This document shows positions 5,029-46,067 of a DNA stretch of 64,000 bases, one piece after another. Position numbers and translations under genes: made by a program. The notes under the pieces were generated by a model. It saw nothing but the letters and a program-made list of their open reading frames with translations. It was not told where the DNA came from and searched no databases. This stretch comes from an uncultured virus (IMG/VR IMGVR_UViG_3300030108_000061) (lineage: Duplodnaviria; Heunggongvirae; Uroviricota; Caudoviricetes): IMG/VR virus record IMGVR_UViG_3300030108_000061. One strand, 5' to 3'. Every line of letters starts with the position of its first letter. Position 1 is the first letter of the stretch.

Positions 5029-5041
5029 AAGGAGTGACTAA

Positions 5042-9546: not shown

Positions 9547-10737
9547 TTATCGTATTAGATAAGCAGAAAATCTATTATCTTTAGCAAAGGGATCTTGATA
9601 ACCATGATACACATAAAGAAAAGTTCCATCCGTAATAACAGATCCTGTTTTATACTTTCTTTGTTGCACATTTCTTGCAAAATCATTTTCGTTTTCTTCC
9701 ACTATCACTTGAGGAATAAGTGGTATAAGTTTACCGTCTTTGTCTTTTGGTGGATTATTTTTATTTTCCATATCTGCATTATATTTTTCAAAAGCATATT
9801 CAGCTAATTGATCATTAGCTGTATCATACATACCTCTAATAGCAGCCGATAAAGCAGTTGATTTAATATCTGCATTTCTTGTGGTAAGTTCTTTAGCTGC
9901 ACCTATTGCTGCCATACTGGCAAAATGTTGTTGACCATCTTTCATGTTTTCTATTTCATTATTAATTCCTAATTTAAAACCATAAGGGGCTAATACTCTA
10001 GCATACACACCTTTTATTTGTGATGGAACGTTTTTAGCTCCAAATGCCTCTCCCTCTTCACCTGTTTTATCTCGTTTTGCATCTTCATATGTAGCTAATC
10101 TTTTTAATAATGTTTGTTCTTCAGCTATTAATGCATCGTATTTATCTTTACCCATCACTGATCCATCAGGATCACGAGCTATTTCTTGCCCTATTACAGC
10201 TAATCTTGTACCAAAACTATTTTCTATTTTATCTGGTTCTGCATATAAATCTTTATAGACTGTTGGATTTATACCAAATCCTGATAATATAGAATCATTA
10301 TCTTGAGTTAACGTTGTTTCTGTAGTTGTAATATCCCCTACTTTTGCTGGACTTGCAGCATTAATTGTAGTATTAATAATACTCTGATCATTTTCATTCA
10401 GATCACCAGAAACAGATGGTAAATTTAAAACAGTCATAGGATCAATATCTTTTTTAATTGCACGTTGACCTATATCAAGATATATTTCTGCTGCAGTTGC
10501 ACCTTTTTTAGCTAGTTTTCTTGCTGTATCATCATCATAAAACACAGACAATGCACCCATTAACTCTTCCGTAATGGCATTTTTTTTATCACGTTCAGCT
10601 TTACGGGCAGAACGTAGCCTCATAGCCTCTGTCTCAGCTAGATAGTCAAACCTACGTTGCTGTTCTTCCTCTTCCTCTATGCTTTTAACAATAGATTGAG
10701 ACATACCATTTAAAAAACCACCAAAATTAAAAGACAT
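9547..10737 (-). CDS. Putative internal virion protein
   Basis: MSFNFGGFL N-terminus followed by coiled coil; position in the ejection block; homolog 61368..62540. Confidence 0.6.
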   Translation of the reverse strand: MSFNFGGFLNGMSQSIVKSIEEEEEQQRRFDYLAETEAMRLRSARKAERDKKNAITEELMGALSVFYDDDTARKLAKKGATAAEIYLDIGQRAIKKDIDPMTVLNLPSVSGDLNENDQSIINTTINAASPAKVGDITTTETTLTQDNDSILSGFGINPTVYKDLYAEPDKIENSFGTRLAVIGQEIARDPDGSVMGKDKYDALIAEEQTLLKRLATYEDAKRDKTGEEGEAFGAKNVPSQIKGVYARVLAPYGFKLGINNEIENMKDGQQHFASMAAIGAAKELTTRNADIKSTALSAAIRGMYDTANDQLAEYAFEKYNADMENKNNPPKDKDGKLIPLIPQVIVEENENDFARNVQQRKYKTGSVITDGTFLYVYHGYQDPFAKDNRFSAYLIR

Positions 10738-11258
10738 TACATTCTCCTAGACATTAGGCCACCTTCTTTGGGTGGCTCTTCTGTTTCAAATACTTCTTCT
10801 ACCTGACTCATTGGAGAAACAGGCTCCTCTTTACCAGCCTCTTCTCTTTTCTTACGGATCTTATTTAAAGCAAGGGCTATAGATGACTCTGAAGGAGTAT
10901 CATCAGTTTTTAGCTTTGTACCCATATTATATTTTACACCTTGTTCCTCTGCAAGATATGCCAGTGTTTCCATAAGCACAGGTATAATTAATATTCCTAC
11001 ATCTACACTATGCTTGCCTTGCATAACTGCACCACTTTGCAAAGTCTCTGCTATAATAGTAAGAGGCACACCTGTTTCTATCACATTCATTAAATCTTCT
11101 TGCATATCAGGATCAATGATACGTGGTATGTGAAACTGTATAGCTTCTTCTACAGTAGAAAACTGTGGTGGTTGTTGCCAAGGTCTATTACCTAGTTCAT
11201 GTGTTAACCCTTGACCTGCAATAGGGGCATCAAGAGGTATCTCTAATGCTTTAGTCAT
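10737..11258 (-). CDS. Conserved virion-associated protein
   Basis: GQGLTHELGNRPWQQPPQ; homolog 62540..63085. Confidence 0.7.
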   Translation of the reverse strand: MTKALEIPLDAPIAGQGLTHELGNRPWQQPPQFSTVEEAIQFHIPRIIDPDMQEDLMNVIETGVPLTIIAETLQSGAVMQGKHSVDVGILIIPVLMETLAYLAEEQGVKYNMGTKLKTDDTPSESSIALALNKIRKKREEAGKEEPVSPMSQVEEVFETEEPPKEGGLMSRRM

Positions 11259-11457
11259 TTTTTAGTTCCCGTCTTCCATTACGTATTTCCATTACATAAT
11301 TTGCAATCCTTTGTCTTGGCTCTAGCTCAGACTTTTTATTTTGATTTTTAGGTCTAGGGCCACGAGACAACAACCCCATAGTTGTATCGTCTTGTTTTTT
11401 AACTTTTGCTCTAGGCAAAGGTAAATTAGCATATGCTTTTAATGCTGTATTATACAT
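11251..11457 (-). CDS. Small basic hypothetical protein
   Basis: Homolog 63078..63278 (GLLSR, LEPRxRIAxYVMEIR). Confidence 0.7.
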   Translation of the reverse strand: MYNTALKAYANLPLPRAKVKKQDDTTMGLLSRGPRPKNQNKKSELEPRQRIANYVMEIRNGRRELKND

Positions 11458-11466
11458 ACTTTTCTC

Positions 11467-14400
11467 CTATCCGAATAAATCAATATCAAATACTTCTCCA
11501 AGAATAGTTCCACCAAGTGTTTGTGTAAGATCTGTAGTAAGTATCTTGCCTATTAAAGAACCAAAACCTACAGAAGTTGCATAGTCCTCTTTTAAAGTTG
11601 CTAAATCTAATTCTGTATCAGCACGAAGTTGTGCCTCTGCCAAGTTCATAAAACGAGTTTTTTCATTTTCAGAGGCAGTCCAAGCCCATTCCATATTGTC
11701 AGAATAATATTGCCACAAATTATTATACGCATCACGAGATACACCTAATAGTGACTCTGCATTTATTTCATTTGCTCTGTTAACAGCCTCTGTAGCTGCA
11801 GTTGCAATTTGCCTACGCCACGTTGCGTTAGCCTGATCAATTACTAAACGATTAGTAGCATTAAATTGTTCTCGTTGATTATTTATTTCAGTGTTAAATC
11901 TTTCAACTACGTTTGTTTGTCCTGCATTAAACTGAGCCTGTGCATTAGCTTGAGATGCATTAAACTGTGCAGTTTGATTAGCTAGGCTTGCAAAAAACTG
12001 ATCTGTTTGATTTTGTGAACTTGCATTAAACTGTGCAGTAGCATTCATAGCTGCTTGATCGGTAAACAAAGATTGTATACGTTGTTGTGCCTGAAATAAT
12101 TCTGTTTGTTGTTTATTAGATAAGTTAGCCATATCCATTTGCAAAAAGTTCTGTGCATTTTGTACAGCAGCTTGTTGTCTATTAGATAAATTAGCCATGT
12201 CAAGATTTGCAAGTGCAGCAGCCTCTGCCATAACCATAGCTTGACTATTACTTAGATTAGCTAGATCTACACTATTAGTAATACGGGCATTTTCTAATGC
12301 TATCTGTTGCTCTGCAGTAAAGTTCATATTTGCTACGTCACTAACTTTAGCTGCATTAGCTACACGTGATTGAAATGCTTGGTCAAACTCTTGACCTATA
12401 AACTGTGCTCTTTGTTGTGCTGCAAGCATAGCACGTTGCTGACGATTTGACAAGTTCTGTTGTTCAAAACTTGCAGTTACAGATGCATCAGCTTGTGCAA
12501 TAGGCAAAGCAGATTCCATAGCTGCTTGTACAAGTGCTTGCCCTGCTATACTACTAGCACCTAATCCTCGTGCTGCCATTTGTGCACTTACTGCTCTCAT
12601 TGCACCAGCAGCCCATGCAGGGGTAGCACCGCCTTCAAAGTCCTGCATAAGACCTTCTAGCTGCCCTTGTACGGTAGCTTTTTGACTTGGCATAGCTTGT
12701 GCAGCTTGCACTTGTTCCGTAAACTTAGCTGCTTTCTCTGCGTCTGCAGCACCTGTTATAAGCTCACCACTTTGTATCTCACGAGTAACAGGATTATTTA
12801 TTAGTGTAGCTGTACCCTGTGCAGCCTCTAATCCTGTTATACTTGAATCCGTTTGTTGAGCAGCCCCCACTCGTGCTTGGTCACTAACAGTGCCTTGTGC
12901 AGCCTGTGTTCCTTCAGCAACATCTGCAACTGCACCTGCAACTGTAGTTGTACCTGCAAGTGTAGTTCCTGTAGCTGTAGGCATACCTGCTTGAGTAGTT
13001 CCTGCTAATGCAGTGGGAACAGCAGCAGCCCCCGATACTTGACCAGAACGTGGATCTATAAACTGCCCTGCTTCCATTGTTGTTTTAACTGGTACAACTG
13101 TAGCACCTACTGGTAAACCTGGAGTTACAGCTTGTAATGCAAATACATCTTCTAAAGAACCTGATTCAGGAAGAGTTTGTGGTGGTATATATTGTTGACC
13201 AACAGGAGTAGGATCAGGAGTACCGCCAGATTGAAACTTTTGAACCATACCACCTTGAGCCATTTGCATAGCCTTTTGATTGTACATATCCATCTTTTGT
13301 TTTTTATCAGGATTATTATTAAGATAATCATTAAATCCAGACATGTCACCTTGATATCCTAAACTACCTGCAATTTTTTGCATTGCCTGTGGTTTAAATC
13401 CACCAAAAGATTGTGTCATTGGCATAGTTTGTTGATTTTGTTGTTGCATGTTTGAAACCATCCCACCTTGTTGATATTGAAATGTTGGCGTATATCCAGT
13501 TTGTATAGGTATGGTAGGATTATAGTTATAAGAACTTGCTTGCCCTACTACACCAGTAGATATTTGAGGCACATTAAATTGAATATTACTAGGAGTAAAA
13601 CCCATATTTTGTTGTAGCTGATATGTTCCAGTATTTGGATTAACAGCAGGTCCAGTAAATTGAGGTTGAGTTACATTTGGAGACTGATATGTAAAACCAC
13701 TAGGAATTGGTTGTGTAGTCATTTGTTGTATGGGCATAGTTTGTGTTTGAGGTGTAACTGGTGCCACATTAGATACAGGAGTGTCCACTATATTTTGTTG
13801 AGGTTGAATTTCTTGTTGTTCAACCTGATCGACAGAACTAATAATATTTTCTACTGGATCAAATACATCCTCTACATTTTCCTCAGAGTCTAAAAAATCT
13901 GGTTCTGTTTCACTTATAGGCTCTACTGTTTCTGTAGTTTCTATAGTTTCTACAGGATCAGTAATTGTTTCTTCTACAACTCCTGTTTGTGTTCCTATGT
14001 TTTCTTGATGAAAAGAACTTAATGTATCAGCTACCTTTTCATTAGTTTCAAGTCCTTGATTATGTCTTAATGTAGCAATTGTATCTTGTATTGTTATTGA
14101 ACCATCATTATTAAAATCATATTGATCTATTTCATCTGCAGATATTTTATCTAAACCAACAATATCTTTTTGTATTTTTTCTACCATTGCCTTAGAAGAA
14201 AGCTCTGGACTATTTTCTATAAAATTACTAAAGGCACTCGTTATCTTATTATTTATTTCTTCTGTCTGCCCAAGGTTTTTAAAGCCTCTTAATACGTTTA
14301 CAGTATCTCCAATTCCAATGCTACCATCACCATTTATATCATAAATAGATAATTGATCTGTAGGTATTTCTTTTAATCCAACTATATGTTCTTGTAGCTT

Positions 14401-14775: not shown

Positions 14776-15236
14776 TATCTAGTTCCTAACCAAACAAAGC
14801 CAAACAAAAAGCCAACACAACACAAAAATAAAAGGATACCCGATGTCCATTCAATAATTGCTTGTTTGATTTCCATTTGCCTGTGTTCATGTTCTCTCTT
14901 TTGTTTTCTTAAATCTGCTTCTATCTCTAATATTTCTTGCCATTTAGAAGGTCCATACATAACTGATATATAATCTTTCAATTCTTTTCTCATGGACTCA
15001 GCCTTTTGTTTAGCTGCAAATATTTCCATAGCCTGTGATTCAATACCACCACCTAATGCTTTATACCAAGGTGGTTTTTGGTTTTGTCTATCTGCAAAAT
15101 CTAGATCAGCTATAGCACCAGCCCACTTAGCCATAGTGCCACCCATGTCTTGCAGGTCTTTGCCAACCTGTATGCCTTTTTTTAGTGTGTTAAAGGCAGC
15201 AGTAGCACCTGCAATAGCCGTTATGGGATCTATCAT
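14775..15236 (-). CDS. Hypothetical protein with C-terminal transmembrane segment
   Basis: MIDPITAIAGATAAF N-terminus; hydrophobic C-terminus. Confidence 0.7.
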   Translation of the reverse strand: MIDPITAIAGATAAFNTLKKGIQVGKDLQDMGGTMAKWAGAIADLDFADRQNQKPPWYKALGGGIESQAMEIFAAKQKAESMRKELKDYISVMYGPSKWQEILEIEADLRKQKREHEHRQMEIKQAIIEWTSGILLFLCCVGFLFGFVWLGTR

Positions 15237-15438
15237 CTTCTCTCTATAATTCTATCTAGTTTTGCGTCTAGAGCCTCCAGNNNNNNNNNNTAGTCATATA
15301 GTCACGAGCCATTTCTTCTCGTGTTTTATTTAGTAGGACTTGCATACGTTGTGTTTCTGTGTGTTGGCTACGGATAACCCAACCTACTATACCAAGTAGG
15401 CCAGTTAGTCCAGCACTCCATAGCAACTCCATTTCCAT
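15233..15438 (-). CDS. Small membrane-anchored coiled-coil protein interrupted by the assembly gap (not in ORF track)
   Basis: MEMELLWSAGLTGLLGIVGWVIRSQHTETQRMQVLLNKTREEMARDYMT-[N gap]-LEALDAKLDRIIERR*. Confidence 0.6.
15281..15290. other. Scaffold gap (10 N); probable junction between two related phage genomes
   Basis: N run; the sequence to the right is gap-free to the window end and contains its own copies of the genes on the left. Confidence 0.9.
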
Positions 15439-16125: not shown

Positions 16126-19100
16126 TTATACTATATATGAAATACTTGCACATATAAAATCATTAGCAGATACATCAGAAACTTGCACTGTTCTCTGTGA
16201 ATTGCTTCCTGATTGGAAATGAAATCTTCCAAAACTATTACCATTAACCATTTCAAAAACTACTGGTATGTCGTTTGATCCACCAAGACCCTGACTTCTT
16301 ACCGCACCTTGTGATTGTATAAAAGTTGAGTTGCTTGCAAAAGGAAAACCAACTATAAAAAAGTTACCCGACATACTTCCTACACTACTAACTGATAGAC
16401 TAAAATCAGCAAATACTCTATTACCAATTCTTGTATATCTTCCTACATTACTTCCTGCCGATCCTCCACTTCCTGATGCACTTCCAACACTTGGAGTAAA
16501 TGTGCCTTCTTCGTAATGGTCTAAAACTTCAGAGTTTGTAGTTGCACCACTCGCACTTGTGGCTGTTTGTGCAGAAAAATCGATACCGTGACCTGCTGTG
16601 CCTATTATAAGGTCACCATCAACAATTTCTAAATCACCTCCACTGTGCATTTTAATTTTTTGTGCAAGATCACTAACGTTATTACCATTTGCACCAGTTA
16701 GAAATCTAATTTGTCCATTTTCAACTTGTATAGCTGCATCATTTTGACCACCTGTAGTGTCGTGAAAGAACATAGCAGGTATTGCAGCACCAAGAGTTAG
16801 TTGAGCATCATTTGCCTGAGAGCCAGCACCTAACCCAGCAGAAATTGCACCGTTTGGAACCGAAACATTTCCAGAGCTATCGATACGCATATTTTCTGCA
16901 ATATTATCTGCACTGCTGGTTCTAAAAGTTATAAAACCATCGTCTTTATTAGTAGTATCAGCACCTGCTTGAAATAAAATCTGAGCTACACTCGTACCGT
17001 TCCATTTACCTGTCACTCCTAACAGAGCAGCATCTGCACTACTACGATTAGCATCCCCAGCTATTTCATTGCTTGTGTCGCCTGTTGATTTGACTAAAAT
17101 ACCCTCATCACCCGAATCAGTACGTATTTCTAAATTTTTTGCTATACTGTCAGTTCCGGTTCCAATTCCAACATTGCCAGAAGCATCTATGGTCATACGT
17201 GTCGTATTATTTGTCGTAATATTTAAACCTGCATTTTCACGTTGCTCAATATTAGCAGTGCCATTGGTAGCTATACCTATCTGAAAACCGTCACCATCTG
17301 AACTACTGCCAGTAGTTGAGTTTGTTATTTGAAGTTTAACGGATTCACTACCGCCATTAATATGGAGAAGGCGTTTTGGAGAAGTTGCCCCAATACCCAC
17401 ATTGCCATCACCTGTTATAGATAACCTCTCATCCGTTGTAGCATCACCAGCAACTGAACCAACAAAAAACCCAAGCCTTCTACTAGCTTGAGTGGCATGG
17501 TTAAACGACATAATGTACATATCTTGCTGGTTGCCGCCAAACGAAAGAGCATTGTAAATACCGTTGCCTACACCACCGTTTGTTAGTTTAAGAGTTTCAT
17601 TACTATTAGCTGCGGTTACATCAGTCGAGGTGTGTGACGTTACAACATGAAATGGTGCGGCTGGACTTGTGGTTCCAATTCCCATGTTGCCGTTTTCGTC
17701 GATGATTACTTGGGGGGTATCTGCCTCTAAATTGCCTATACCCGTGTAAAATCGCAGGTCCATGTTTCCAGATGTGTCTGCAGCTTCACTCCTGATCCCT
17801 GCGTAATGTGGAACACTTCCTGTACTACTATCTATATTCTTAAAAGCTATTGCCCCAACGTGCGCCCCAGCACCTATATTGCTAGATGCGTTGTTTCCTA
17901 TTATTAAATCGCCACCATCGCCACCAGATATTTCTAAAACTTTAGCAAGGCTGTGTATACCTGTCGGACTTGAAGTGCCTACTCCCAAGGCTCCTACTAC
18001 ATTAGTTATAGAGCCAGTGCCACTGCCAATAGTTACATCTACTTCATCCTCTGCATCACCATCTCTTATTTCTAATCCTGATTGAGTTTCACCATCATGT
18101 GATGCTACTCTAAACTTCATGTATCCACCTGCACTTGCAGCAGCAGCAGCACTAATATGTGTTTCTATTGAGCCATAATTAACGTCAGCATTATTTTCTG
18201 CATTTCTACCTACAAAAAGTATTCTGCCTATTTCATCATCACTAGCAGCACTTGCAGATTCTCTTTCAAATACCATTACAGGTCCAACAGAAGCATCTGC
18301 ATCTGTAGATTTAAGAGTAAGTTGAGTAGAGTTATCAGAAGTTACAACTTCAACAGAGGTGTTAAAAACTGCAGAGCCACTAACATCTAGAGTACCATTA
18401 ATATCAATATCTGTAGCAGTAAGATCAATTTCATCAGTAGCACCTAGTGACAATACGGTTCCACTAGAACCTTGAATAAACTGACTTGCGTCATTAAACA
18501 TGATCTTATTAGTAGAGTTTAGTGTAAGTCCAGAACCATCAGTGTGTGTAAGAGTAGTATCACCATCATCACCAAATGATAACACTGCATTATCTGAGTC
18601 AAGAAACAAATCATCTGCTATAGTTAAATCACCTGTAGAGCTTAGTGTCATTTTAGCAGTGGCACTAGCAGCAGCAGTTTCAGATGCACCAGTAGTAAAA
18701 ACTAATTTAGTAGAGTTAACACTAGAGGTAAACTCTGCCTCTGCTATAGCATGTATACCTGCAGCCACAGTAGCAGCATCTGTACCACTATCATCCCCTG
18801 CAGCAAACTCAATAGAACCAATAACTTCATTTGCAGTTATTTCATTTTCTTTAGATTTAAGTTGTATTACTATTGGTTTATTATCATCTGTATTAGTGTT
18901 AGTAATTGTCAAACCTGTATCTGCTACATGAGTAACAGTTATTTCACTATCTGCACCAAATGATAATACAGAGGCATCAGATAAAAGTTTAAAATCATTA
19001 CCAAGCACTGCATCTTTAGCTACAGACAAACCACCATCTGTTTGTAAAGAACCATCTGTTGTAGATGTTGCATCTGTAGCATCATCTGTTTTAAGAATAC

Positions 19101-22153: not shown

Positions 22154-23098
22154 TTACAATACTCTGCTTGGTAGTATCTTAGTGTTCATTGCTCCTGATG
22201 CTATAGCTGTAGAACGAACATAGTCATATCTATTAATGTAAAGAGTACGCATGTTTTTAATACCATCATCAAAAGCACTTTTTAAAATCATAGCTTCTTG
22301 TGTTTCACCTCTAAACATGTAAGCCATATACATAGCTCCATCTACAATTACATATCTAAACTGCACAGGAAGACTAGGTACATCTGTAGCTGCAGATAAA
22401 TTTGTAGGTAGCTTGTAATAATCAAACTCCAATACATATTGTTTATCAGGATATGGATACAATAAGTAATTATTATCGGGGGTTCTTACTATAGCTCTAG
22501 GCACTTCACCTTCTGTAAACTGTGTTACTACTGTGCTATTAGCTATAGTGGCTGCAGTTGTACTATTTGCACCTCTAGTACATCCTGTAAAATCGTTACC
22601 TAATATACCTGTATAGGTTATTTGTTCTGCACCTATGTGTAGTGTACCAGTAGATGTAAATCCTGTTGTTGATGCGACAGTTATTGTTGTTACAGATGCA
22701 GACAATCCAGAGGATGCATTAATAGTTGTTGATGATATGGGGTCTTCTTGATTAGCATAGTTCTTAGATATATACTCTTTGTAGTCTAATACATTTAATT
22801 TATTGCCAGTTACAGTTAGATCTGCATCTTTTTTAATTCTTGCTGTACCATAGTCTACAGACTTTGCATCTGTAGGTATAGAGTATCTTACTACACCTGC
22901 AGTTAAAGTTTTTGTTTCTGTATCATGGTTAAATGGAAAACCATATTCATGTTGATTAATATATCTTATAGATGCATTTATAGCATCCTTTACCATAGCA
23001 TACTCACCTATAGCAGAGGTAAAGTTACTAGAAGTAAGTTCAACCTCGTTTAGTCTTCTATTAACATCATTAACTAAACCTAAATAATCGTATGCCAT
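22154..23098 (-). CDS. Head-tail adaptor (tail tubular protein A-like)
   Basis: YLGLVNDVNRRLNEV, FPFN, YPYPDKQY and VIVDGAMY..Y.FRG motifs. Confidence 0.75.
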   Translation of the reverse strand: MAYDYLGLVNDVNRRLNEVELTSSNFTSAIGEYAMVKDAINASIRYINQHEYGFPFNHDTETKTLTAGVVRYSIPTDAKSVDYGTARIKKDADLTVTGNKLNVLDYKEYISKNYANQEDPISSTTINASSGLSASVTTITVASTTGFTSTGTLHIGAEQITYTGILGNDFTGCTRGANSTTAATIANSTVVTQFTEGEVPRAIVRTPDNNYLLYPYPDKQYVLEFDYYKLPTNLSAATDVPSLPVQFRYVIVDGAMYMAYMFRGETQEAMILKSAFDDGIKNMRTLYINRYDYVRSTAIASGAMNTKILPSRVL

Positions 23099-23121
23099 TT
23101 TATTTCCTTAGATCAAGCTAA

Positions 23122-23145
23122 AGGGGCCAACCTAAGTTAGCCCCT
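23122..23145 (-). terminator. Probable terminator after the capsid genes
   Basis: Minus strand AGGGGCUAAC-uuag-GUUGGCCCCU followed by a short U-rich tail. Confidence 0.6.
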
Positions 23146-23152
23146 AAAGTTT

Positions 23153-23692
23153 TTATGCGAGTAGATCACGATCCACTTCATTAGCAGAGCTAGACTGTGA
23201 TACTTCATCCAAGAGTATGCACACGGCAAACACACGAATAATACCACCAGTAATAGTTCCACTGGATGCCTGAATCTCTACATCAATAGTATCTGCTGAT
23301 GCAGTAAATGCTGGTACATTAGCAACAACACCACTTGATAAACCTGCAGGAGGAGTAATAGCTCCTGCTGAAGCTCCATCTAAGTCAAATGACGCAGCAA
23401 ACAAGTCTACGTCTGTTCCTGTAATACCAACATGAAACTCAGAGTCTGTAGTAGTACCTGCCATTGCAGTGACAACTTTGAAACCTGCATATAGGATCAT
23501 AGTGTTTGCAGGGACAGCAATAGCTTCAATGATATCATTTGCTGCTAGTGCAGTACCACCGTTTTGTAGGATAGCATCTGCAAGATCAATATCGTTCTGC
23601 AGAGTTACTAAACTTCCACGAAGCTGCTTATTGCCAGTACCGCCATTATTGGAAGTAGAGGCTGAGTTCGTGCTCATTGTAATTGTAGCCAT
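23153..23692 (-). CDS. Putative capsid decoration/cement protein
   Basis: Immediately after the MCP; small and beta-rich; RBS GGAGG. Confidence 0.6.
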   Translation of the reverse strand: MATITMSTNSASTSNNGGTGNKQLRGSLVTLQNDIDLADAILQNGGTALAANDIIEAIAVPANTMILYAGFKVVTAMAGTTTDSEFHVGITGTDVDLFAASFDLDGASAGAITPPAGLSSGVVANVPAFTASADTIDVEIQASSGTITGGIIRVFAVCILLDEVSQSSSANEVDRDLLA

Positions 23693-23706
23693 AATTCAAT
23701 CCTCCC

Positions 23707-24780
23707 TTACGCTGCGTTATACTTGGCAGTAACGATTGCTTCTGGACGAAGTATCTTCCTACCATATAGATGCATACCACGAACAATGTCAGCAAAGCTG
23801 TCAGGGTCACGATATGTTTCTGTCTTATTAATCTGCTCTGCAGTTGCAACAGCAGATTCATGTCCAGCAACTAACACTCCAAAATTTGAGTTCTGGTTAG
23901 CTGTTCCTGATGTGCCTGGGCCTGTGCCTACGGCAGGGAGGTTTGAGGATACATACAAACGGAACCCATGAAAGTTGTTGATCACTAGACCATTACGTAG
24001 TCCACCTGAATCACCATAGTCGCCATTCATGAAGCGGCTATCTTCGTCAGAAAGGATTTCCATAAATACAGGGTCAATGACAAGCCATCTCCCTTGTGTA
24101 TCAACTTGTTGTTGATCAAGCAAACGTTTCATACGTGCTACAATCATAGCAGGTGAAACAGTTGCAGTTGGAAGGGATGTGGCCCCAGGCATACGAGCAG
24201 TTACTGGAATCGAATGATCGCCAGCAGATGTCGTAGTGATGTTACCAAAATCACCCTTCTTTAGTTTCATGCTTGAAAGCAGTTCATCATCACCTGCGGT
24301 CAAAACAGCTTTTTCACCACTTGCGGTATCATTTGCTGTATCTGCTTTTGCATGTAATGCTGACTGTTTAAAGCCTGACATGTAGCCAAGAACTTCTTGG
24401 TCATACTGATCAGCTAGGCGATAAGCTGCACGATCTGTTGCCAGATCCATGAAGTTCACGTGACTGTGTGCCTCTTCGATGTCATCCATCTTAAAAGCAA
24501 AGTAGTTACTTTTGTCAACTACCAATGTGAAATCTTCATCATCCAAGTCTTGTGCAGTGACAGTTGTGCCACGTGTGTAAGACTGAACTGAGATTTCAGG
24601 TTCTTTGATAATACGAACAGTATCACCTTGAGCAGAAATCTCCCCAAAATAATCTGAGTTCGTAATATCCCCAACAGTAGCAGACTTGCGAAATGCAAGC
24701 TGTACCTGTTTGGAATAGATTACAGGACTAAAATTACCGTTAGGTAAGTTCCCATAACCCGATGCTGATGAAAAAGCCAT
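23707..24780 (-). CDS. Major capsid protein
   Basis: NLPNGNFSPVIYSK, ITNSDYFGEI..QGDTVRIIKEP and E.YRDPDSFADIVRG.HLYG.K.LRPEA motifs; RBS AGGAGG. Confidence 0.92.
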   Translation of the reverse strand: MAFSSASGYGNLPNGNFSPVIYSKQVQLAFRKSATVGDITNSDYFGEISAQGDTVRIIKEPEISVQSYTRGTTVTAQDLDDEDFTLVVDKSNYFAFKMDDIEEAHSHVNFMDLATDRAAYRLADQYDQEVLGYMSGFKQSALHAKADTANDTASGEKAVLTAGDDELLSSMKLKKGDFGNITTTSAGDHSIPVTARMPGATSLPTATVSPAMIVARMKRLLDQQQVDTQGRWLVIDPVFMEILSDEDSRFMNGDYGDSGGLRNGLVINNFHGFRLYVSSNLPAVGTGPGTSGTANQNSNFGVLVAGHESAVATAEQINKTETYRDPDSFADIVRGMHLYGRKILRPEAIVTAKYNAA

Positions 24781-24816
24781 GATATAATCCTCCTATAAGT
24801 TTGGCTTCACTATGAG

Positions 24817-24976
24817 CTAAACATATTAAGTAGAGGCTGATTGATCTAATAGGGTGCATACTCCACTGATTGGCCTATCAGTATTGTACGGGCCTATACA
24901 CAAACAGGTAAGTCTTTTTGTTTAGGCTAATATTAAGTATAAATGTTAAAAGGTAGACCATTCGGTGGCTTTTAAC
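24817..24976 (-). ncRNA. Structured 5' leader of the MCP mRNA (putative cis-regulatory RNA)
   Basis: One hairpin (24945-24976) and one long stem (24817-24925) carrying three CC / C(U)nAC internal loops; folded by hand. Confidence 0.6.
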
Positions 24977-24989
24977 TAGTATACATATA

Positions 24990-25017
24990 GTTATACTGTA
25001 AAATTTTTATTTGTCAA
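24990..25017 (-). promoter_or_regulatory. Promoter for the MCP operon
   Basis: TTGACA-N16-TATAACTATA on the minus strand. Confidence 0.75.
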
Positions 25018-25024
25018 CAGTATT

Positions 25025-25882
25025 TTATCGTGCAGACCCAGACATGTCATAAACAAATTTTCCAGATCTAATTGACTCCATGATAGCATCTGCAGCTTTT
25101 TCATATTGCTGCGCTGTCATTTTGGCAACTTGCGATTCTTTAAACGAACCTGATTTATCTTCTGTCTCAGGCTCATTGTTACTTGTTCTTTTATTTACAG
25201 AACGAGCGGCATCTTTTCCATTAACTTTTTTAGTGGGTTTAATATTACGATCTGCTTTATACAAGTCAATTGCTCTTGCTGCAGACCTTGCATCTGTATC
25301 ATTTTCATACAATGCATCTTGTACCCACTTAGGCTGTTCTTCTGCCCACTCATGAAAATCGTCACTCTCTCTAATCTCTCCAAAATCAGGGTGAGCTTTC
25401 ATAAGTTCTACCTCTGCTTTTTCACGAGATGCAGTAGCACGTAATTGATCTATTTCCTTTACTTTATCTTCTAATCCTGCAGATTGTTCTCTAGCTTTTT
25501 TAATTGCAATAGTTTCTACAATAGCTGCAACATCAGGATGTTGTTTTGCCCAAGCATCAATATCTTCATCTGACTTAGGTAATTTTATCTCTTTACGTGT
25601 TACCTCTTGTAACTGACCCTCAAGGGTTTTAAATTTTTCTTCCCAATCTTTTTCTTTTTGTTGCATATGGCGACGAAGATCACCATATCGTTTTTTAAAA
25701 CTTTTTTCTTCTGGACTAGTAGGTTCCTCTTCTTTAACCTCTTCTGTAGTAGCTTCTTTACGATCCTTAAGAAGTTCTTTTAGTTCCTGTTCATCGTTTT
25801 CTATCCTGTCTAAATTAGCATTTTTTCTATTCATAAATGCAACTTTTTTTGGTTCTTCTTTAATCATTACTGCTTCAGTCAT
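25025..25882 (-). CDS. Capsid scaffolding protein (start reassigned to ATG 25882)
   Basis: Charged coiled coil, FKKRYGDLRRH, HPDF..I..S..F..W; directly upstream of the MCP; RBS AGAGGA precedes MTEAVM. Confidence 0.8.
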   Translation of the reverse strand: MTEAVMIKEEPKKVAFMNRKNANLDRIENDEQELKELLKDRKEATTEEVKEEEPTSPEEKSFKKRYGDLRRHMQQKEKDWEEKFKTLEGQLQEVTRKEIKLPKSDEDIDAWAKQHPDVAAIVETIAIKKAREQSAGLEDKVKEIDQLRATASREKAEVELMKAHPDFGEIRESDDFHEWAEEQPKWVQDALYENDTDARSAARAIDLYKADRNIKPTKKVNGKDAARSVNKRTSNNEPETEDKSGSFKESQVAKMTAQQYEKAADAIMESIRSGKFVYDMSGSAR

Positions 25883-25895
25883 TTTATTTCCTCTA

Positions 25896-25940
25896 ACTGG
25901 GGCCACCGTAGCCATGTTGGATGGGGGATGAGTAGCCAGC
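25896..25940 (-). ncRNA. Hairpin in the scaffold-gene leader (putative cis-regulatory RNA)
   Basis: GCUGG-CUAC-UCAUC-CC-CCAU-ccaac-AUGG-CUAC-GGUGG-CC-CCAGU, ending just before the RBS. Confidence 0.6.
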
Positions 25941-25952
25941 GTATATAGCAGA

Positions 25953-28181
25953 TTACTTACGTGCTGCTATGCCACGATTCTTGGGGGTAACTTTTTTCTT
26001 TTTAGATCTACTTACAAGACCACCTTCTTTAAAACCATAACCTCCTACGTATCCTTTACCTGCCATTTGCCCTGCTTGAACTGCTCTTTTTTGTCTATCA
26101 GCATCAATACGATCAGCTACAGCCCTTGCCTGTGCTGCAGATGCTTGTCCTCCTGCTACAGATTTTTGAGTTAGTGCTGCATTTTGTCTTGCTCTTGTTA
26201 TATCTGCAGCAGATGTTCTGTCCCTATCTGTTCTACCTCTTTCACCAAAATCTATGGGGGCTGTTGGTGCTGATGGTCCTGCTGGTGCAGGAGTAAAGCT
26301 ATCTATACCTGCAGGTTCTGTTGCAAATGTTGGTGGTGGTGCGACAGGTGTTGCAGTAGCTGCAGGTGGTGCTACAGTTGTTGGAGTAAATCCTCTATCT
26401 GTTTCTTGTCTTGCACGTATAGTTCTTTCAAATTTATCTATCTCATAGTTAGAATAGCCTTCTGCTTCTAAATCTGCTTTAGTATATGTGCCTTTTATGC
26501 TTGCTAGTCTAGCTGCAGCACTTGCTATATCTTCTTCTTTTTGCGCTGTAGATGGTGTTGTTTCATCAACAGTAGTTGCAGTAGCTGCAGGTGGCGCAGT
26601 AAGATCTAAACTAATAGGATCAAATCCTCTAATAGATGTTTCTCCATAGAACTCAGGTTCTGTAGGTTTACCTGCTGTAGCTACCACTGTTTGTAAAGAT
26701 GCCTGTACAGCATCAGCATCAGCACTTTGCAAACTACCTATTACAGAGGTAGTAGGAACACCTAATACTTGAGGTCTAATTGGAGTACCTGCCTCTATAC
26801 CTGCTTTTAAAATATCAGATACGGGTCTACCCATCTCATAATCAGCCACTGTTTGCATAGCTCTAGGCAGTAGTGATCCTTTAGGATCAAACCCTTCATC
26901 TGTAGTAATTTTTATAACACCCTCATTCTTAGCAGTTCCATCTTTTTCATTATTATTCTCATCTGATGCATATTCAATAGCAGCAGTTGTTGCTGCCTCT
27001 GTATCTTCTTTATTTAAACTTAATGCACTTGAAACATCTTTAATTACATCATTTATTAATCCAATAGCAGCCATTCCAAGGCCACCACCTTTTTCTGTTT
27101 TTTCTTTTAATGTAGCTAATTCTTCTTTCAAATCATCTAGCTTACCAGCATCTTTCATTTTGTTTACAAAAGTTTGATCATTTTTTATTTTATCTTGTAA
27201 TTTTTCAAGCGTGTTTATTTTATTCATACGCATCATAGCTGCAGAGGCTAATCCAAAAGCAGGATTAATTACACTAGCAATAGCTACAAATACATTTCCT
27301 ACAGAGCTATTAATCTTTCCTACTTCGTTTACTATTTCTTCTGCACTTGCTGCATCGTAATCAAAAGGCTTTGGTGGGGGAAGTGGATCACGATCATTAT
27401 CATCTCGAACACTTGTAGTAGGTGTTGTAGTAGGATCAGTTGTTACATCATCAGTATCGTCTGATATTTCATCTCCCTCTTGATAAGGTATATAACCATC
27501 TGGAATTGGCGTTATAGGATTGCCTTTATAAAAAGTAAACTTTCTTATATCGCCAGTTTCTGGATTGTAGTACTCTACTTCGTAATAATCTAAAAGTTGA
27601 TTTGCTGTAACTACTGGCTTTGGAGATCCTGTAACTGTTTCATAATTTACACCTTGTTCTACAAATGCAGGTCTGTATCCTGATGTAGTTGTCTGCCCTG
27701 TATTATAAGTTATAGGTCTAAAAGAACTTGCAGGGGGAGTATATGTAGGAATATTTGCAGGTGGATTTGAATACACAGAGGGTCTAGTAATTAATGTACC
27801 TGCTTGCGCTTTAACTACCCCACCAGTATATTTTTTCTTAGGCTTTTGTTTTGGCTCTCCTATAATAATTAAATCAGCCATATCAAACGGAAGATCATCA
27901 GGTATAATAGCCTCATCAGAATTACCCATCTGACCCATAGCTTCCATCTTTTTTAAGCCCATCTTAGCATCTTGTCTTAACTGCATTAATTTATCAAGAC
28001 CAATATAACGAACTACATCTTCTGGAAAAACAAACTCACCTTCACTTATCATAGCAGGTATATCATCACGTACACCTTTTTTAGTTCCCCCTATAGGAAC
28101 TTTATTACCAGACACTTCATCTATTTCACCACCCTCATCTTCAAGGCCACCTTTACGAAATAAATCTAATTGCTGTTCCAT
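25953..28181 (-). CDS. Head-module protein of unknown function (conserved N-terminal domain, low-complexity remainder)
   Basis: DDIPAMISEGEFVFPEDVVRYIG domain; located between portal and scaffold; P/T/A-rich C-terminal half. Confidence 0.7.
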   Translation of the reverse strand: MEQQLDLFRKGGLEDEGGEIDEVSGNKVPIGGTKKGVRDDIPAMISEGEFVFPEDVVRYIGLDKLMQLRQDAKMGLKKMEAMGQMGNSDEAIIPDDLPFDMADLIIIGEPKQKPKKKYTGGVVKAQAGTLITRPSVYSNPPANIPTYTPPASSFRPITYNTGQTTTSGYRPAFVEQGVNYETVTGSPKPVVTANQLLDYYEVEYYNPETGDIRKFTFYKGNPITPIPDGYIPYQEGDEISDDTDDVTTDPTTTPTTSVRDDNDRDPLPPPKPFDYDAASAEEIVNEVGKINSSVGNVFVAIASVINPAFGLASAAMMRMNKINTLEKLQDKIKNDQTFVNKMKDAGKLDDLKEELATLKEKTEKGGGLGMAAIGLINDVIKDVSSALSLNKEDTEAATTAAIEYASDENNNEKDGTAKNEGVIKITTDEGFDPKGSLLPRAMQTVADYEMGRPVSDILKAGIEAGTPIRPQVLGVPTTSVIGSLQSADADAVQASLQTVVATAGKPTEPEFYGETSIRGFDPISLDLTAPPAATATTVDETTPSTAQKEEDIASAAARLASIKGTYTKADLEAEGYSNYEIDKFERTIRARQETDRGFTPTTVAPPAATATPVAPPPTFATEPAGIDSFTPAPAGPSAPTAPIDFGERGRTDRDRTSAADITRARQNAALTQKSVAGGQASAAQARAVADRIDADRQKRAVQAGQMAGKGYVGGYGFKEGGLVSRSKKKKVTPKNRGIAARK

Positions 28182-28187
28182 TATAAG

Positions 28188-28412
28188 TTACTCACTTTTT
28201 AAAACCTCATCACGCAGTAATTTTAATCTACGTAGTTGATATATTGCACCTTGTGCTCTATACATTATTTGAATATTGTCTGTCTGTTCTATATTACGAT
28301 GCTGCTGTTCAATAAGCATATCTAAATATTTACTGAACTGGTCCCATTGCTTCTGGTTGCTCACCAGCCCCTTCAGCTTGTTGAGGTGCTCCTTGTTGTT
28401 GTTCATTACCAC
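28188..28412 (-). CDS. Small conserved post-portal protein
   Basis: YRAQG....LRRLK.LRDEV pattern; overlaps the portal 3' end. Confidence 0.65.
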   Translation of the reverse strand: MVMNNNKEHLNKLKGLVSNQKQWDQFSKYLDMLIEQQHRNIEQTDNIQIMYRAQGAIYQLRRLKLLRDEVLKSE

Positions 28413-30468
28413 TAAATCCTTGTTCTTGCGGTGTTGGTGCTTGTCCTGTGCCTATAGTGCCACCCCCTGCTCCTGTCGGGTCTGCAGGGTCAGCACCTGC
28501 TGGTGCTTGTTCAGGTTGCTGTTGTTGAAAACCTTTCATTAGTTCTGCTTGTAATGCAGCTTCATCCATATTATTAGTTACTTTATCTGGGTCAAGATCA
28601 AGAGACTTTGCAATCTCTCTAATAATATATTGAAACTTAGCAAATGGTGCTAAAGCTGGACTAGAGGCAATTTGCATAAACTGCATTAATCTTTGACTAC
28701 GTACTTCATTAGCCATAAGACTTTCTGTACCACGTGCCTTTACTTCTAAATCCCCTTTTATTTCTGGGTCGTAATCAAATTGCATATTAAATCTAAATAA
28801 ACCCTCACCAAGAGGGCGTAATAAATAGTCATCTACATTTTTAATTACGTTTTTTATACCGCCTTGAGCAGCACCCATAAGCATACTGATACCAGAAGCA
28901 GTACGGCCCACACCACTGACGCCTGTTTGACCATGTGCAAAAGATGGGAATCCAGTTGATTCATCTGCTAATACCCTCGCTTTATCAAATAGTTGCAAAT
29001 TTTCTGCGGCAACATTAGGAAACTTTGTGCCAAAGATAGCTTGACCTGGAGCACCACCTTGTCTCCTAAATATCTTGCCTGGATATACACTAAGGTCTTG
29101 GCCTGGGACTAAATTAGTTTCATCTACCTCTATAAGAAGATTACCTGATAGCACAGCATTATCTACCGCCATACGCATGAACCCATTCATAAGAGTCTGT
29201 GTATCATCCATATTTTCTGCTATGCCTACCCCAAAGAATGAATAAGGATTTAATTCATACGGTGCAGCCATATATGGGATATTAGCAGGTTTAAATGGAT
29301 TAAGAACCATACGCAATAATTTGCCGTTACAAATCCAAATATTCGCTTGTAACTCATCTACATCTTGTAAGTCATCTGGTATATCTACGCCTTGCTCTAA
29401 AAGCATAGCAGTATCTGCTGTACCCCAATATTCTAAAACCTCATAGCGATATGTGCCATAGTCAGACATATAATCTTCTAGGTCATTTTCCCAATATTCT
29501 TTTTGATAATTTTCACCTAGTTCTATTGCTTCTTCAATAACTGTAGGTCTAAAATAAGGTCTGCGCTTTAATGCACGTAATTGTGAGCGAGACATCTTAT
29601 GCCTTTCAATTACATACTGTGCCTCTTCTATATTAATAGCATCAGGATCAGGATAAAAGTTCCACACAGAAACATGTGATACTTGTGGTATAGTTTTTAT
29701 TAAAGGAGAATATTCACCTGTTTCATCCCAATTAGGATATTCTTTATCAATAGCAAATGGCCCCTTCATCACACCAGTTCCAAATAGCGCCATTTCAAAC
29801 GCTGTACTACGTAAATGTTTACTAGCTCCAGATTCCTCTAGTTGATCGTGTATCTTTTTTTGCATCATTTTAGCCGCCACCATAGCAGGGCTAAATGTAA
29901 TTGAAGTAGGTGTTTTACCTACGCCTTCACGTAATCCTTCAATATCACCTAGTTTATCTTTTAGTGGCCCTAAACTTTCTAATAAAGTTTTTTGTGTTGC
30001 TCCTGCTGGCAAATCATTGCCATCTCCCTTAAATCCATATGGGCTAACAGGATCATTTATAGTATTCTCTTTTAATTGTTCTGGTTCTTTAGGGTCGAAG
30101 TTAACATCTGCAACTACGCCATCAGGTAATTCTGTTGGATCTACTGTTAATGGAAACTTTTGACTTGCAAATAATACATCTACAATTTGACCATATGCTG
30201 CAAGTGTTTTTGTTTTAGTTACCTTAATAAATACTCTTGACCTTTCTGCCTCTGTAAACTGAACGTCAGGGCCATATAAACCTCTATAATTTCTATAAGC
30301 TCTTAGCCAACGATGCTCGTCTTGTTGCCTAGATGTTTCTGCACGATTATATCGTTCCATAACATATGGAATAATATTAGATGTCTCATAGTCCTCTGTA
30401 GCAGAATCCTCACTATCCGCTAAGACAACTGCATCATCCTCTATAAAACCTTGATCATTATCTTCCAT
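28330..30468 (-). CDS. Portal protein
   Basis: RWLRAYRNYRG, SRVFIKVTKTK, FGTGVMKGP and RTASGISML motifs; follows the terminase. Confidence 0.9.
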   Translation of the reverse strand: MEDNDQGFIEDDAVVLADSEDSATEDYETSNIIPYVMERYNRAETSRQQDEHRWLRAYRNYRGLYGPDVQFTEAERSRVFIKVTKTKTLAAYGQIVDVLFASQKFPLTVDPTELPDGVVADVNFDPKEPEQLKENTINDPVSPYGFKGDGNDLPAGATQKTLLESLGPLKDKLGDIEGLREGVGKTPTSITFSPAMVAAKMMQKKIHDQLEESGASKHLRSTAFEMALFGTGVMKGPFAIDKEYPNWDETGEYSPLIKTIPQVSHVSVWNFYPDPDAINIEEAQYVIERHKMSRSQLRALKRRPYFRPTVIEEAIELGENYQKEYWENDLEDYMSDYGTYRYEVLEYWGTADTAMLLEQGVDIPDDLQDVDELQANIWICNGKLLRMVLNPFKPANIPYMAAPYELNPYSFFGVGIAENMDDTQTLMNGFMRMAVDNAVLSGNLLIEVDETNLVPGQDLSVYPGKIFRRQGGAPGQAIFGTKFPNVAAENLQLFDKARVLADESTGFPSFAHGQTGVSGVGRTASGISMLMGAAQGGIKNVIKNVDDYLLRPLGEGLFRFNMQFDYDPEIKGDLEVKARGTESLMANEVRSQRLMQFMQIASSPALAPFAKFQYIIREIAKSLDLDPDKVTNNMDEAALQAELMKGFQQQQPEQAPAGADPADPTGAGGGTIGTGQAPTPQEQGFSGNEQQQGAPQQAEGAGEQPEAMGPVQ

Positions 30469-44061: not shown

Positions 44062-44931
44062 ATGCCATTTGATATTACAAATTTTGACAATTCAAACAGT
44101 AAACCTTTCGATGTTCCACACTATCTGGACTTCCCTGTGGAGTTTGAACCCACTAAAGTGAAGGACAAGAAGTATGTTATCAACGGAGAGACAGGCGACT
44201 ACCTTGGTGTAGTCGGTGATAAGTTTACCTGTGCATCACATGGTGACTTCTATCGTGGTGTCTATGACACAATCACTGAAAACCTAATGCCAGAAGAGAT
44301 GATGAATGCACAGTTTACGTGGCGGTCTGCCCGTAACAATGCGTGGTCTATGTTAGACATCTCATTACCTGATATGCAGGTAGAGATTAGCACAGATAAT
44401 CATACAACTACGTTGGGCAATCGTATCATCTCATTACATGGTATTGATGGATCATGCAGCAATCAAGCATTCTTTGGTGCTATTGATTACTTTTGTACCA
44501 ATGGGCAGATCCGTGGTGAGTACGACAAAGTGCGTAAGAAGAATACATCCAACTTTACACTGGATGGTTTTATCTACGAACTAAGACGTGCGAGAACTGA
44601 CTTCTATGAAGAGACTGCCAAGATGCAGGTGTGGGCGCAGACTTCCACAAAGTATGTGGACATACAGTCTTTGCTTGAGGAGATGATTTCTTCCAAACGT
44701 AAGGCAGAGAAAATGTTTAGTCTGTACTGTGCAGAGGCAAGCACACGTGGTCACAACAAGTGGGCATTGTATTCTGCCTTTACCAACTATGCCAGCTATG
44801 CTGATGAACGTAACGGGTTTAACCTGCGCAACACTGGCAATGATACACGTGCTATCAGCATGTTCAGCCGTGAGCAAGAGGTAAGCAAGTGGGTATCGGA
44901 TGATCGTTTCATCCAGTTGGAAGCTGCTTAA
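44062..44931 (+). CDS. DUF932-family protein
   Basis: LGVVG..F....H, HGIDGS, FCTNG and WALYSAFTNYAS motifs. Confidence 0.7.
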   Translation: MPFDITNFDNSNSKPFDVPHYLDFPVEFEPTKVKDKKYVINGETGDYLGVVGDKFTCASHGDFYRGVYDTITENLMPEEMMNAQFTWRSARNNAWSMLDISLPDMQVEISTDNHTTTLGNRIISLHGIDGSCSNQAFFGAIDYFCTNGQIRGEYDKVRKKNTSNFTLDGFIYELRRARTDFYEETAKMQVWAQTSTKYVDIQSLLEEMISSKRKAEKMFSLYCAEASTRGHNKWALYSAFTNYASYADERNGFNLRNTGNDTRAISMFSREQEVSKWVSDDRFIQLEAA

Positions 44932-46067
44932 TGCCAAGGCTACCACGGTATGTACAAGAACGAGTGTCACCTTCTGGTGGCATCTCGTATCGTTTTAATC
45001 CACCACAGATACTAGTGGACGAAGGTGTAGTAAAAAGAGAGTCTTACGGGTCAGACTTAAAGCAGGTTCGTAAGATCGTCAAGCAACACAATGAAAACAT
45101 TGACAAATGGAGAGAAGAGCAGTTGATGACTGTTCGTATGAACAAGGTCACAGATCTGATCAACTTTTATTATCAATCTAATGATTTCAGTATGTTACGT
45201 GATACAACTAAAGTGGATTACCGATACTTCCTGACCATCTTGCACCAGACTATGGGCTGGCGTAAGTATGACAAGATTACACCTAAAATTGCCAAGCAAG
45301 CCTATGAAGATTGGGTTAGACGTGGCATCAGCTTTGCCAATCATGCAGCTACTTGTGCTAGTAGAGTATACAACTATGCAATAATGATGGAGTATGCTAC
45401 GCAGAATCCTTGGGCTAATATCAAACGCAAGACTAGTAAGCAACGTAAGGTTACGTGGTCACACGGTGAGATCATCAAGTTCCTTGACATGGCCTATACA
45501 GATTTTGAGTACAGGAACATAGGACTAATAGTCCAAATGGCTTACGAGTGGTGTCAGAGGTTAGGAGACATGCGCAATTTACAGTGGGACAATATAGACT
45601 TTACCTACGGTAGATTAGAACTAGAGCAAAGCAAACGCAGGGCAGAGGTAAGTCTGCCTATATCTGGTAATCTATTGCACATGTTACGAGAACAACGTGA
45701 AGACTTTGGATTCCAAAAATACGTAGCTCCACATCCTAGACCTGTGAACGGGGTGTACAGTCCGTATGCTATGGAACGGCTATCTAAGGTAGGTAGACGG
45801 GTCATGCGACTAGCTGGTTTACCAGAAGAGTTAAGACTTATGGACATACGTAGAACAGGAGTAACACAAATGGATAAGGAAGGTGTGCCGATTAACCAGA
45901 TTATGTCTGTTACAGGGCATAGCCATATGGCCTCTGTAAAGCCTTATTTAAAGCATTCTTATGATAGCGCAAACAGTGCCTTGACAATGCGCAATGTAAG
46001 TGTATCCTTGAGTGAAACGAACAACATAGAAAGTGATACATATGAGTGTAAGAAATATAATCAATGA
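44931..46067 (+). CDS. int: Tyrosine integrase/recombinase
   Basis: QRLGDM (R), QSKR (K), DIRRT (HxxR variant), TGH and downstream Y. Confidence 0.88.
   Translation: MPRLPRYVQERVSPSGGISYRFNPPQILVDEGVVKRESYGSDLKQVRKIVKQHNENIDKWREEQLMTVRMNKVTDLINFYYQSNDFSMLRDTTKVDYRYFLTILHQTMGWRKYDKITPKIAKQAYEDWVRRGISFANHAATCASRVYNYAIMMEYATQNPWANIKRKTSKQRKVTWSHGEIIKFLDMAYTDFEYRNIGLIVQMAYEWCQRLGDMRNLQWDNIDFTYGRLELEQSKRRAEVSLPISGNLLHMLREQREDFGFQKYVAPHPRPVNGVYSPYAMERLSKVGRRVMRLAGLPEELRLMDIRRTGVTQMDKEGVPINQIMSVTGHSHMASVKPYLKHSYDSANSALTMRNVSVSLSETNNIESDTYECKKYNQ

Follow-up and report, generated by a model that had tools for sequence, protein, structure and literature searches.

A conserved CC/CUAC hairpin ahead of the scaffold-position gene of HMO-2011-type phages, probably a protein-binding switch

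Autoregulation of the scaffolding protein of phage P22 has been known since the 1970s–80s, and to our knowledge no RNA operator has been defined for it. In phages MS2 and PP7, a dimer of the coat protein binds an operator hairpin at the ribosome-binding site and represses translation. The boxB element of lambda is a simple stem with a five-base loop that is read by an arginine-rich helix, and it works with boxA in antitermination. The RNase III sites of T7 are intergenic hairpins with an asymmetric internal loop, located before highly expressed genes, and the enzyme is a symmetric dimer. In T4, gp32, gp43, and RegA repress translation by binding RNA at or beside the initiation region. For the autoregulation in P22, literature searches whose coverage left out most of the older work found no RNA target. 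A preprint implicates the N-terminus of the P22 scaffolding protein in translational autoregulation (10.1101/2022.12.13.520362).

Here we describe an RNA hairpin in a stretch of 64,000 nucleotides of viral DNA (IMG/VR record IMGVR_UViG_3300030108_000061; Caudoviricetes), referred to simply as the window. As in P22, where gp8 is the scaffold, a gene in the scaffold position lies ahead of the coat gene. No sequence similarity to gp8 or to any scaffold family was found for the protein that it encodes. The hairpin is a new RNA motif of a known type, the protein-binding operator hairpin of phages, and its candidate ligand is unusual; no description of this RNA was found in literature searches. Protein binding, the identity of the protein, and repression of translation are the three points that we infer from the comparisons reported below.

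The window and its scaffold-position gene

The gene set of the window includes an SU10-like portal and adaptor, a terminase, and a major capsid protein (MCP) in phrog_267, which identifies an HMO-2011-type marine podophage. The nearest named relatives are the Roseobacter phages CRP-1 and CRP-345 and the Puniceispirillum phage HMO-2011. The ends of the window duplicate each other, positions 9–5106 matching 51808–56905 at 88% identity and positions 10565–12166 matching 62368–63998 at 73%. These copies are diverged versions of the same region with a period of about 51.8 kb, so the contig is longer than a single genome and links two phage variants that are related; it is either a strain-chimeric concatemer or a tandem. 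A tyrosine-integrase-like gene (44931–46067, plus strand; phrog_1, E 1e-33) lies among the replication genes and suggests that the phage may have temperate capacity.

The product of the gene ahead of the MCP gene is called here the scaffold-like protein. No scaffold-family match to its sequence was obtained in Pfam, PHROGs, or PDB sequences: Pfam gave nothing at E ≤ 0.01 and only noise at E ≤ 5, the PDB gave no sequence match, and PHROGs returned phrog_13678, 'unknown function'. When the protein was modelled with AlphaFold2 on a 24-sequence alignment, an all-helical structure with helices of 40 and 48 residues was obtained (pLDDT 73, pTM 0.35). The matches in BFVD to proteins named scaffold or capsid assembly protein were weak (E 0.03–1), and the nearest named Atlas cluster, taken as a lead only, was 'Scaffolding protein family' (score 0.92). 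The gene is directly ahead of the MCP gene and its product is predicted to be elongated and all-helical, as is looked for in a scaffold by position and shape. 'Scaffold' is a reasonable label, derived from position, predicted shape, and weak look-alikes, and not a family assignment. Unlike typical scaffolds, the scaffold-like protein has strongly conserved motifs. The most striking of these, the basic motif FKKRYGDLRRH, was invariant in all 24 aligned homologues.

The hairpin and its conservation in relatives

The minus strand of the window from 25940 to 25880 reads GCUGG-CUAC-UCAUC-CC-CCAU-CCAAC-AUGG-CUAC-GGUGG-CC-CCAGU-U-AGAGGA-AAUAAA-AUG, and the letters given for positions 25896–25940 in the initial annotation agree with it one by one. 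The parts of the hairpin are listed in Table 1 together with the other features of the region. Upstream of the hairpin is an ORF of 742 aa (25953–28181), the stop codon of which lies 12 nt before the hairpin, and the spacer between the two is AT-rich. The element is within or touching the initiation region of the scaffold-position gene, as is expected of a translational operator.

Table 1. Positions of the hairpin, its parts, and neighbouring features in the window.
Feature	Position	Strand	Basis or remark
Whole hairpin	25896..25940	minus	window sequence, covariation in relatives, covariance-model match
Hairpin outer stem	25936-25940 / 25896-25900	minus	
Hairpin 5' CUAC loop	25932-25935, facing CC 25901-25902	minus	
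Hairpin middle stem	25927-25931 / 25903-25907	minus	
Hairpin 5' CC	25925-25926, facing CUAC 25908-25911	minus	
Hairpin apical stem	25921-25924 / 25912-25915	minus	
Hairpin terminal loop	25916-25920	minus	
Shine-Dalgarno AGAGGA	25889..25894	minus	1 base past hairpin, 6 nt ahead of ATG
Scaffold-position gene, 285 aa, phrog_13678	25025..25882	minus	gene order, homologue alignment
FKKRYGDLRRH, codons 62-72, basic motif, candidate RNA-binding part	25667..25699	minus	start of 40-residue helix 57-96
Promoter-like TTGACA (25012-25017), 16 nt, TATAAC (24990-24995), ahead of MCP leader	24990..25017	minus	
5'-proximal MCP-leader hairpin, GUUAAAAG-CC-ACC GAAU GGU-CUAC-CUUUUAAC, one CC/CUAC module	24945..24976	minus	sequence, MFE fold
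MCP gene	23707..24780	minus	phrog_267, E 1e-62; weak match to P22 coat protein Pfam family

From the window sequence alone, the hairpin was not distinguishable from chance. When 91 nt were folded with RNAfold, a different pairing was favoured (GGCUACU/GGUGGCC; z = −0.65). For the 45-nt hairpin, the structure drawn in the initial annotation had −9.8 kcal/mol against −11.4 for the MFE (z = −1.2). The half-site GGCTACN5CC with at most one mismatch occurred 22 times in the window, 21.7 being expected; its exact copies are two only, both inside the hairpin. Matches to a CC/CUAC descriptor numbered 4, compared with 2.2 in shuffles, and this count was not significant. As the raw descriptor count is at chance level, the case rests on conservation.

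Relatives were collected in two ways. With the downstream protein as query, 80 viral contigs were obtained (64–100% amino-acid identity), and the element lay just ahead of the ribosome-binding site in 78 of them, the other 2 having no upstream DNA. A pattern scan of the same viral collection gave at least 120 further stretches. When all loci were parsed, there were 98 distinct ones among the matches listed, of which 87 were hairpins of this kind. The 11 that were dropped were GC-rich unrelated matches with non-complementary 5-nt segments, one of the matches (L153) being taken out by eye.

The 87 distinct hairpins, all from HMO-2011-type phages, were aligned with MAFFT. Because 65 of them had been collected by a pattern in which loop letters and GG/CC pairs are set in advance, those columns are invariant by construction; the covarying pairs were left free by the pattern. 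The exact pairing with two opposed CUAC/CC loops, as proposed in the initial annotation, placed 93.6% of cells in standard pairs. Seven of its 13 pairs were changed on both sides, and compensatory changes were found in 118 cells. None of 500 shuffles matched the real paired share or covariation score, and slid controls were at most 42% paired. The helix favoured by RNAfold had 86.4% of cells paired, but none of its 7 pairs was changed on both sides, and it was unpaired at two positions in 25 and 29 of the 87 sequences. The shuffle test is uninformative for this helix, as the whole-structure figures take in the apical pairs that both structures share; the comparative counts rule it out. Forms of the middle stem include UCAUC/GGUGG, UUAUC/GAUAA, CUAUG/CAUAG, and CAAUC/GAUUG. 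The protein-anchored sequences, whose sampling left the loop letters free, give an unbiased view of the loops: among the 38 distinct ones, both CUAC loops were present in every one (2 with an extra C), and the 3' small loop was CC in 35 and CU in 3. In relatives, the hairpin is far beyond chance by these counts, and the covariation that the initial annotation had named as a check was borne out.

The position is also conserved. Distinct contexts in which a Shine-Dalgarno and ATG could be recognised numbered 119, and in 110 of these the double hairpin ended 9–16 nt before the ATG. A covariance model of the double hairpin gave one strong match in the window (67 bits, E 2e-17). No second full copy was found there, the next best score being 11.9 bits, and a match at 15361–15384 (plus strand) looks like chance. 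The model also matched once each in the complete genomes of CRP-1, CRP-345, and HMO-2011, always ahead of the same gene; CRP-9 gave a weak match at the same place.

The longest ORF (25025–25915, 296 aa) begins at an ATG at 25915, inside the hairpin, and a second in-frame ATG is at 25882. Among the 119 contexts, 72 had some ATG in the hairpin or spacer; an upstream ATG that was both in frame and open was found in only 18, about the chance level. The hairpin of CRP-1 has no ATG, the distance from hairpin to ATG varies among relatives by non-multiples of three, and the scaffold-like homologues align from the Met proximal to the Shine-Dalgarno. By these comparisons the start of the scaffold-position gene is the ATG at 25882–25880 and not that at 25915, which upholds the correction made in the initial annotation. 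That the stretch is instead coding from 25915 and conserved as protein, or that its symmetry is a chance product, is hardly credible: the longest ORF does begin there and single-sequence folding is not significant, but the rarity of open upstream ATGs, the irregular spacing, the CRP-1 leader, and the alignment of the homologues all speak against it, and the changes are compensatory for pairing.

Several known elements were considered for the hairpin and rejected. It is not an intrinsic terminator, being followed by UAGAGGAAAUAAAAUG and not by a U run, and a terminator scan listed nothing at the hairpin. A kink-turn has a bulge of three bases and, after it, tandem sheared G-A pairs; here the loops consist of CUAC and CC, and the neighbouring letters offer no G or A pairs. 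An RNase III site would need about 20 bp of coaxial double-stranded RNA, and the hairpin has 14 bp in its double form. No promoter was listed just ahead of the hairpin when the region was scanned. In some relatives the AT-rich spacer looks like a −10 box, but a transcript starting from it would lose the covarying outer stem. Rfam 15 gave no relevant covariance-model match at E ≤ 1 for 23000–29000, and none at E ≤ 10 for the 111 nt around the hairpin.

The module, the MCP leader, and a joint change

In the CRP-9 clade (80 contigs, also including CRP-603, CRP-207, and CRP-13), half of the structure precedes the scaffold-position gene. The leader of this clade is AUAAGG-CUAC-[helix and loop]-CC-CCAAC-AUAAGGA...AUG. 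Since the half structure occurs there with a free helix, the conserved unit is local. It is a module of 10 letters made up of a GG/CC helix, CUAC facing CC, and a helix of free sequence. Of 128 single-module loci, 126 had a helix of at least 3 bp, in 17 forms with compensatory changes. Their loops were CUAC/CC in 78, CGAC/CC in 9, AUAC/AC in 36, and ACAC/AC in 3, with 2 unparsed. In the single-module clades the hairpin ended 11–21 nt from the scaffold-position ATG.

The hairpin of the window clade is two modules that share the 5-bp middle helix, and it is twofold-symmetric. Its pseudo-twofold symmetry had been taken initially to suit a dimeric ligand. The symmetry is real in the window clade; a dimer is not required, two large clades having a single module, and it is to be regarded as optional because the symmetry is not universal. 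A homodimer prediction for residues 50–165 of the scaffold-like protein had a score of 0.00.

When the window and four complete genomes were scanned with descriptors, convincing modules appeared only at the scaffold and MCP leaders, the rest being at shuffle level. One loose CC/CUAC match fell in the same homologous coding stretch of HMO-2011 (14860–14911) and CRP-1 (17131–17182; both plus strand), GGGTATTCC...CTACAGTGTT, and is probably coding conservation plus chance. In a relative, the freshwater spring phage MW202701, the double-module hairpin is kept (at about 785–835 in locus L292), with UCC for CC and one C-A mismatch in the middle stem; between the scaffold-position and MCP genes of this phage stands an inserted HNH endonuclease gene.

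The scaffold-position and MCP genes are separated by a spacer of 245 nt. Its promoter-like element was invariant in its columns (TTGACA-N16-TATAAC) in 24 of 24 aligned MCP leaders; a consensus scan omits it because position 6 of the −10 box is not T. The initial annotation had suggested that the proposed operator is shared with the MCP leader, and the module does recur there. Besides the MFE fold in the window, 97 of 99 distinct MCP leaders from both clades contained a lower stem, CC, a small hairpin, and NYAC. The lower stems were 4–14 bp long and very varied in sequence; NYAC was CUAC in 79, UUAC in 13, CCAC in 3, and AUAC in 2. The module begins 10–16 nt past the −10 box and is about 190 nt upstream of the ribosome-binding site, which makes simple occlusion impossible at this gene.

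The whole MCP leader of about 200 nt (24781–24990, minus strand) was 68–92% conserved across clades. It has a covarying hairpin at about 24865–24882, the invariant blocks UAUAGGCCC, UGCACCCUA, UGUUUAGC, and AAGCC, and an anti-Shine-Dalgarno-like CAGCCUCU some 60 nt ahead of the AGGAGG ribosome-binding site. It had no match in Rfam and is a candidate for a second structured regulatory RNA.

Past the MCP gene, CRP-1, CRP-9, and one contig have a GC-rich, UUCG-capped hairpin that looks like a terminator (about 3770–3800 in L001, 3505–3535 in L004, and 3690–3720 in L054, respectively). The window is without such a hairpin; its MCP stop codon at 23707 is followed directly by GGGAGG and the next ATG at 23692. 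No terminator was predicted on the minus strand of 23500–26600. Ten metatranscriptome RNA runs contained at most 14% of the sampled words. Metatranscriptome contigs from 4 runs, which are of read length and show neither ends nor transcription, were confined to portions of the 5' end of the MCP gene, of its leader, and of the middle of the scaffold-position gene, with 25734–26200 uncovered.

In the CRP-738 clade (61 contigs), the loop letters are changed alike at both leaders. The scaffold leader is GG-AUAC-helix-AC-CC and the MCP leader is stem-AC-hairpin-A[U/C]AC-stem, and two sister groups of the clade have kept CC/CUAC at both. When the leaders of the 128 single-module loci were compared with the proteins that they precede, AYAC/AC was followed by KKRYQDIQRH at 39 of 39 loci and C[U/G]AC/CC by KKRYGDLR[R/T]H at 87 of 87, the remaining 2 being without a parsed scaffold site. 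The type of the MCP leader agreed with that of the scaffold leader at 29 AC-type and 70 CC-type loci, with 21 unparsed MCP sites and 8 odd parses set aside.

In 31 CC-type scaffold-like proteins, which span four divergent clades, 40 columns were invariant. Exactly three of these differed in all 10 AC-type proteins (G67Q, L69I, and R70Q), and all three fall within FKKRYGDLRRH. Of 16 perfectly discriminating columns, 8 were within residues 67–78. As a control, the MCP was treated in the same way, with 61 CC-type and 7 AC-type sequences, all distinct, and with 45 of the 152 loci dropped as their leader was unclassed: none of its 103 invariant columns was changed, and one column was discriminating. 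Loop positions 1 and 2 also vary without a change in the protein motif (UUAC, CCAC, and AUAC in MCP leaders; CGAC).

In a quick maximum-likelihood tree, the AC-type proteins formed one clade (SH-aLRT 99) beside CC-type sister groups. As they form one clade, the co-change of RNA and protein is a single evolutionary event and not a statistic. This event makes the basic helix of the scaffold-like protein the best candidate for the reader of the module. Shared ancestry alone could be sufficient to produce it; the true ligand could also be some other protein of the phage, or one of the host that varies from host to host, as the comparison took in only the scaffold-like protein and the MCP.

Function and comparison with known systems

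The hairpin is probably a protein-binding switch that sets the amount of a capsid-building protein. That the unpaired letters are invariant, that the module occurs in two leaders, and that both switch in concert all favour a trans-acting reader common to the two over a hairpin that merely stabilises, and the position flush with the ribosome-binding site points to an effect on initiation at the scaffold gene. That the hairpin is an operator bound by the scaffold-like protein itself, which thereby represses translation, has in our view a little less than an even chance. In that case a single phage protein, most likely the scaffold-like protein, would bind the module and would contact the RNA with the start of its basic helix, KKRYGDLRRH. 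Unassembled scaffold-like protein, on accumulating, would prevent initiation by binding beside the ribosome-binding site of its own gene, in the manner of P22-type autogenous control. The same protein would also bind the mRNA of the capsid protein, and both procapsid components would be made in step. More tentatively, the scaffold-like protein of HMO-2011-type phages may in general be a sequence-specific RNA-binding protein whose KKRYGDLRRH reads the module on its own mRNA and on that of the MCP, tying procapsid synthesis to assembly.

A different trans-acting factor, whether an unexamined phage protein or a host protein, might bind the module for a purpose other than repression, such as the loading of an antitermination or processivity factor onto RNA polymerase in the manner of lambda N at boxB/nut. 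There are two sites per genome, one shortly past the −10 box of a conserved promoter and the other intergenic; in one clade the two switch jointly, as they would for any ligand that they share, and the MCP leader contains further invariant linear blocks. We nevertheless consider such a role unlikely. Antitermination does not need the tight, conserved spacing to the Shine-Dalgarno and ATG of the scaffold gene, the window lacks a terminator from the sites to the genes downstream of them, and the RNA switch is accompanied by the changes in the most conserved motif of the scaffold-like protein. Nor did a small arginine-rich candidate come up in the course of the work, whose protein comparisons covered the scaffold-like protein and the MCP.

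It is quite unlikely that the hairpin is an element of mRNA stability or processing, in which the spacer is cut by an RNase E-like activity, or transcription starts nearby, and the hairpin caps and protects the scaffold and capsid messages with no dedicated binder beyond a nuclease. 5'-terminal hairpins are known stabilisers in E. coli, the predicted transcript opens with the MCP copy, and the scaffold copy follows an AT-rich spacer shortly after the upstream stop codon. A protective hairpin, however, needs no invariant unpaired letters, no repetition of the same asymmetric loop, and no concerted change of loops; as for the nuclease, RNase III is unlikely, the single-module forms having only 2 + 3–7 bp. 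There is only a slim chance that the RNA acts on the ribosome by itself, as a standby site, as an enhancer, or by keeping the Shine-Dalgarno free, its loop letters being kept for a tertiary fold. The flush position would suit such a motif, and the joint change of C to A at the first letter of both loop strands could mean a non-canonical contact. Such an internal contact fits co-change within one site but not the agreement of type between sites (29 of 29 parsed AC-type and 70 CC-type), and at the MCP gene a long distance separates the copy from the ribosome-binding site.

If binding by the scaffold-like protein is correct, scaffold autoregulation would have its first defined RNA operator in this hairpin. 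The hairpin would also come with a matched natural switch of specificity, CC/CUAC with GDLRR against AC/AYAC with QDIQR, which would amount to an orthogonal protein-RNA pair already at hand; a hairpin and protein of this compactness, with two specificities found in nature, could serve as a tool. The analysis yields a small RNA module that is concretely defined, a candidate protein motif that can be named, and natural variants that predict the outcomes of swaps. It also corrects the start codon of a gene and flags the 200-nt MCP leader as a second conserved structured RNA. The module occurs in the cultured phages HMO-2011, CRP-1, CRP-9, and CRP-738 and in hundreds of marine contigs, and HMO-2011-type phages are among the most abundant groups of marine phages.

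Compared with the systems described at the outset, the hairpin resembles the MS2 and PP7 operators in being small, in having conserved unpaired letters, and in lying at the ribosome-binding site. Those operators belong to RNA genomes, and each is a single, asymmetric hairpin that has a bulged base, whereas the window belongs to a dsDNA phage and its hairpin type has a 4-by-2 internal loop, once or twice per hairpin, with no Rfam match. As with lambda N and boxB, a short phage RNA hairpin is found at two places, one promoter-proximal and one intergenic; unlike in boxB, an internal loop is what would be recognised, and a ribosome-binding site adjoins one of the two places. The RNase III sites of T7 extend over about two helical turns, in contrast to the 14 bp of the double form and the 5–9 bp of the single forms. 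The T4 operators differ in being a pseudoknot plus unstructured tract, a hairpin loop, and linear sites, and the T4 proteins are non-structural. In P22, control is post-transcriptional and is exerted by the free scaffolding protein gp8 itself, which for the gene in the window is only proposed. According to the preprint, it is the N-terminal part of gp8 that is implicated; the candidate motif of the scaffold-like protein lies at residues 62–72 of 285. Unlike in P22, the RNA in the window is defined, its regulation being what we propose, and its motif is also present on the mRNA of the capsid protein.
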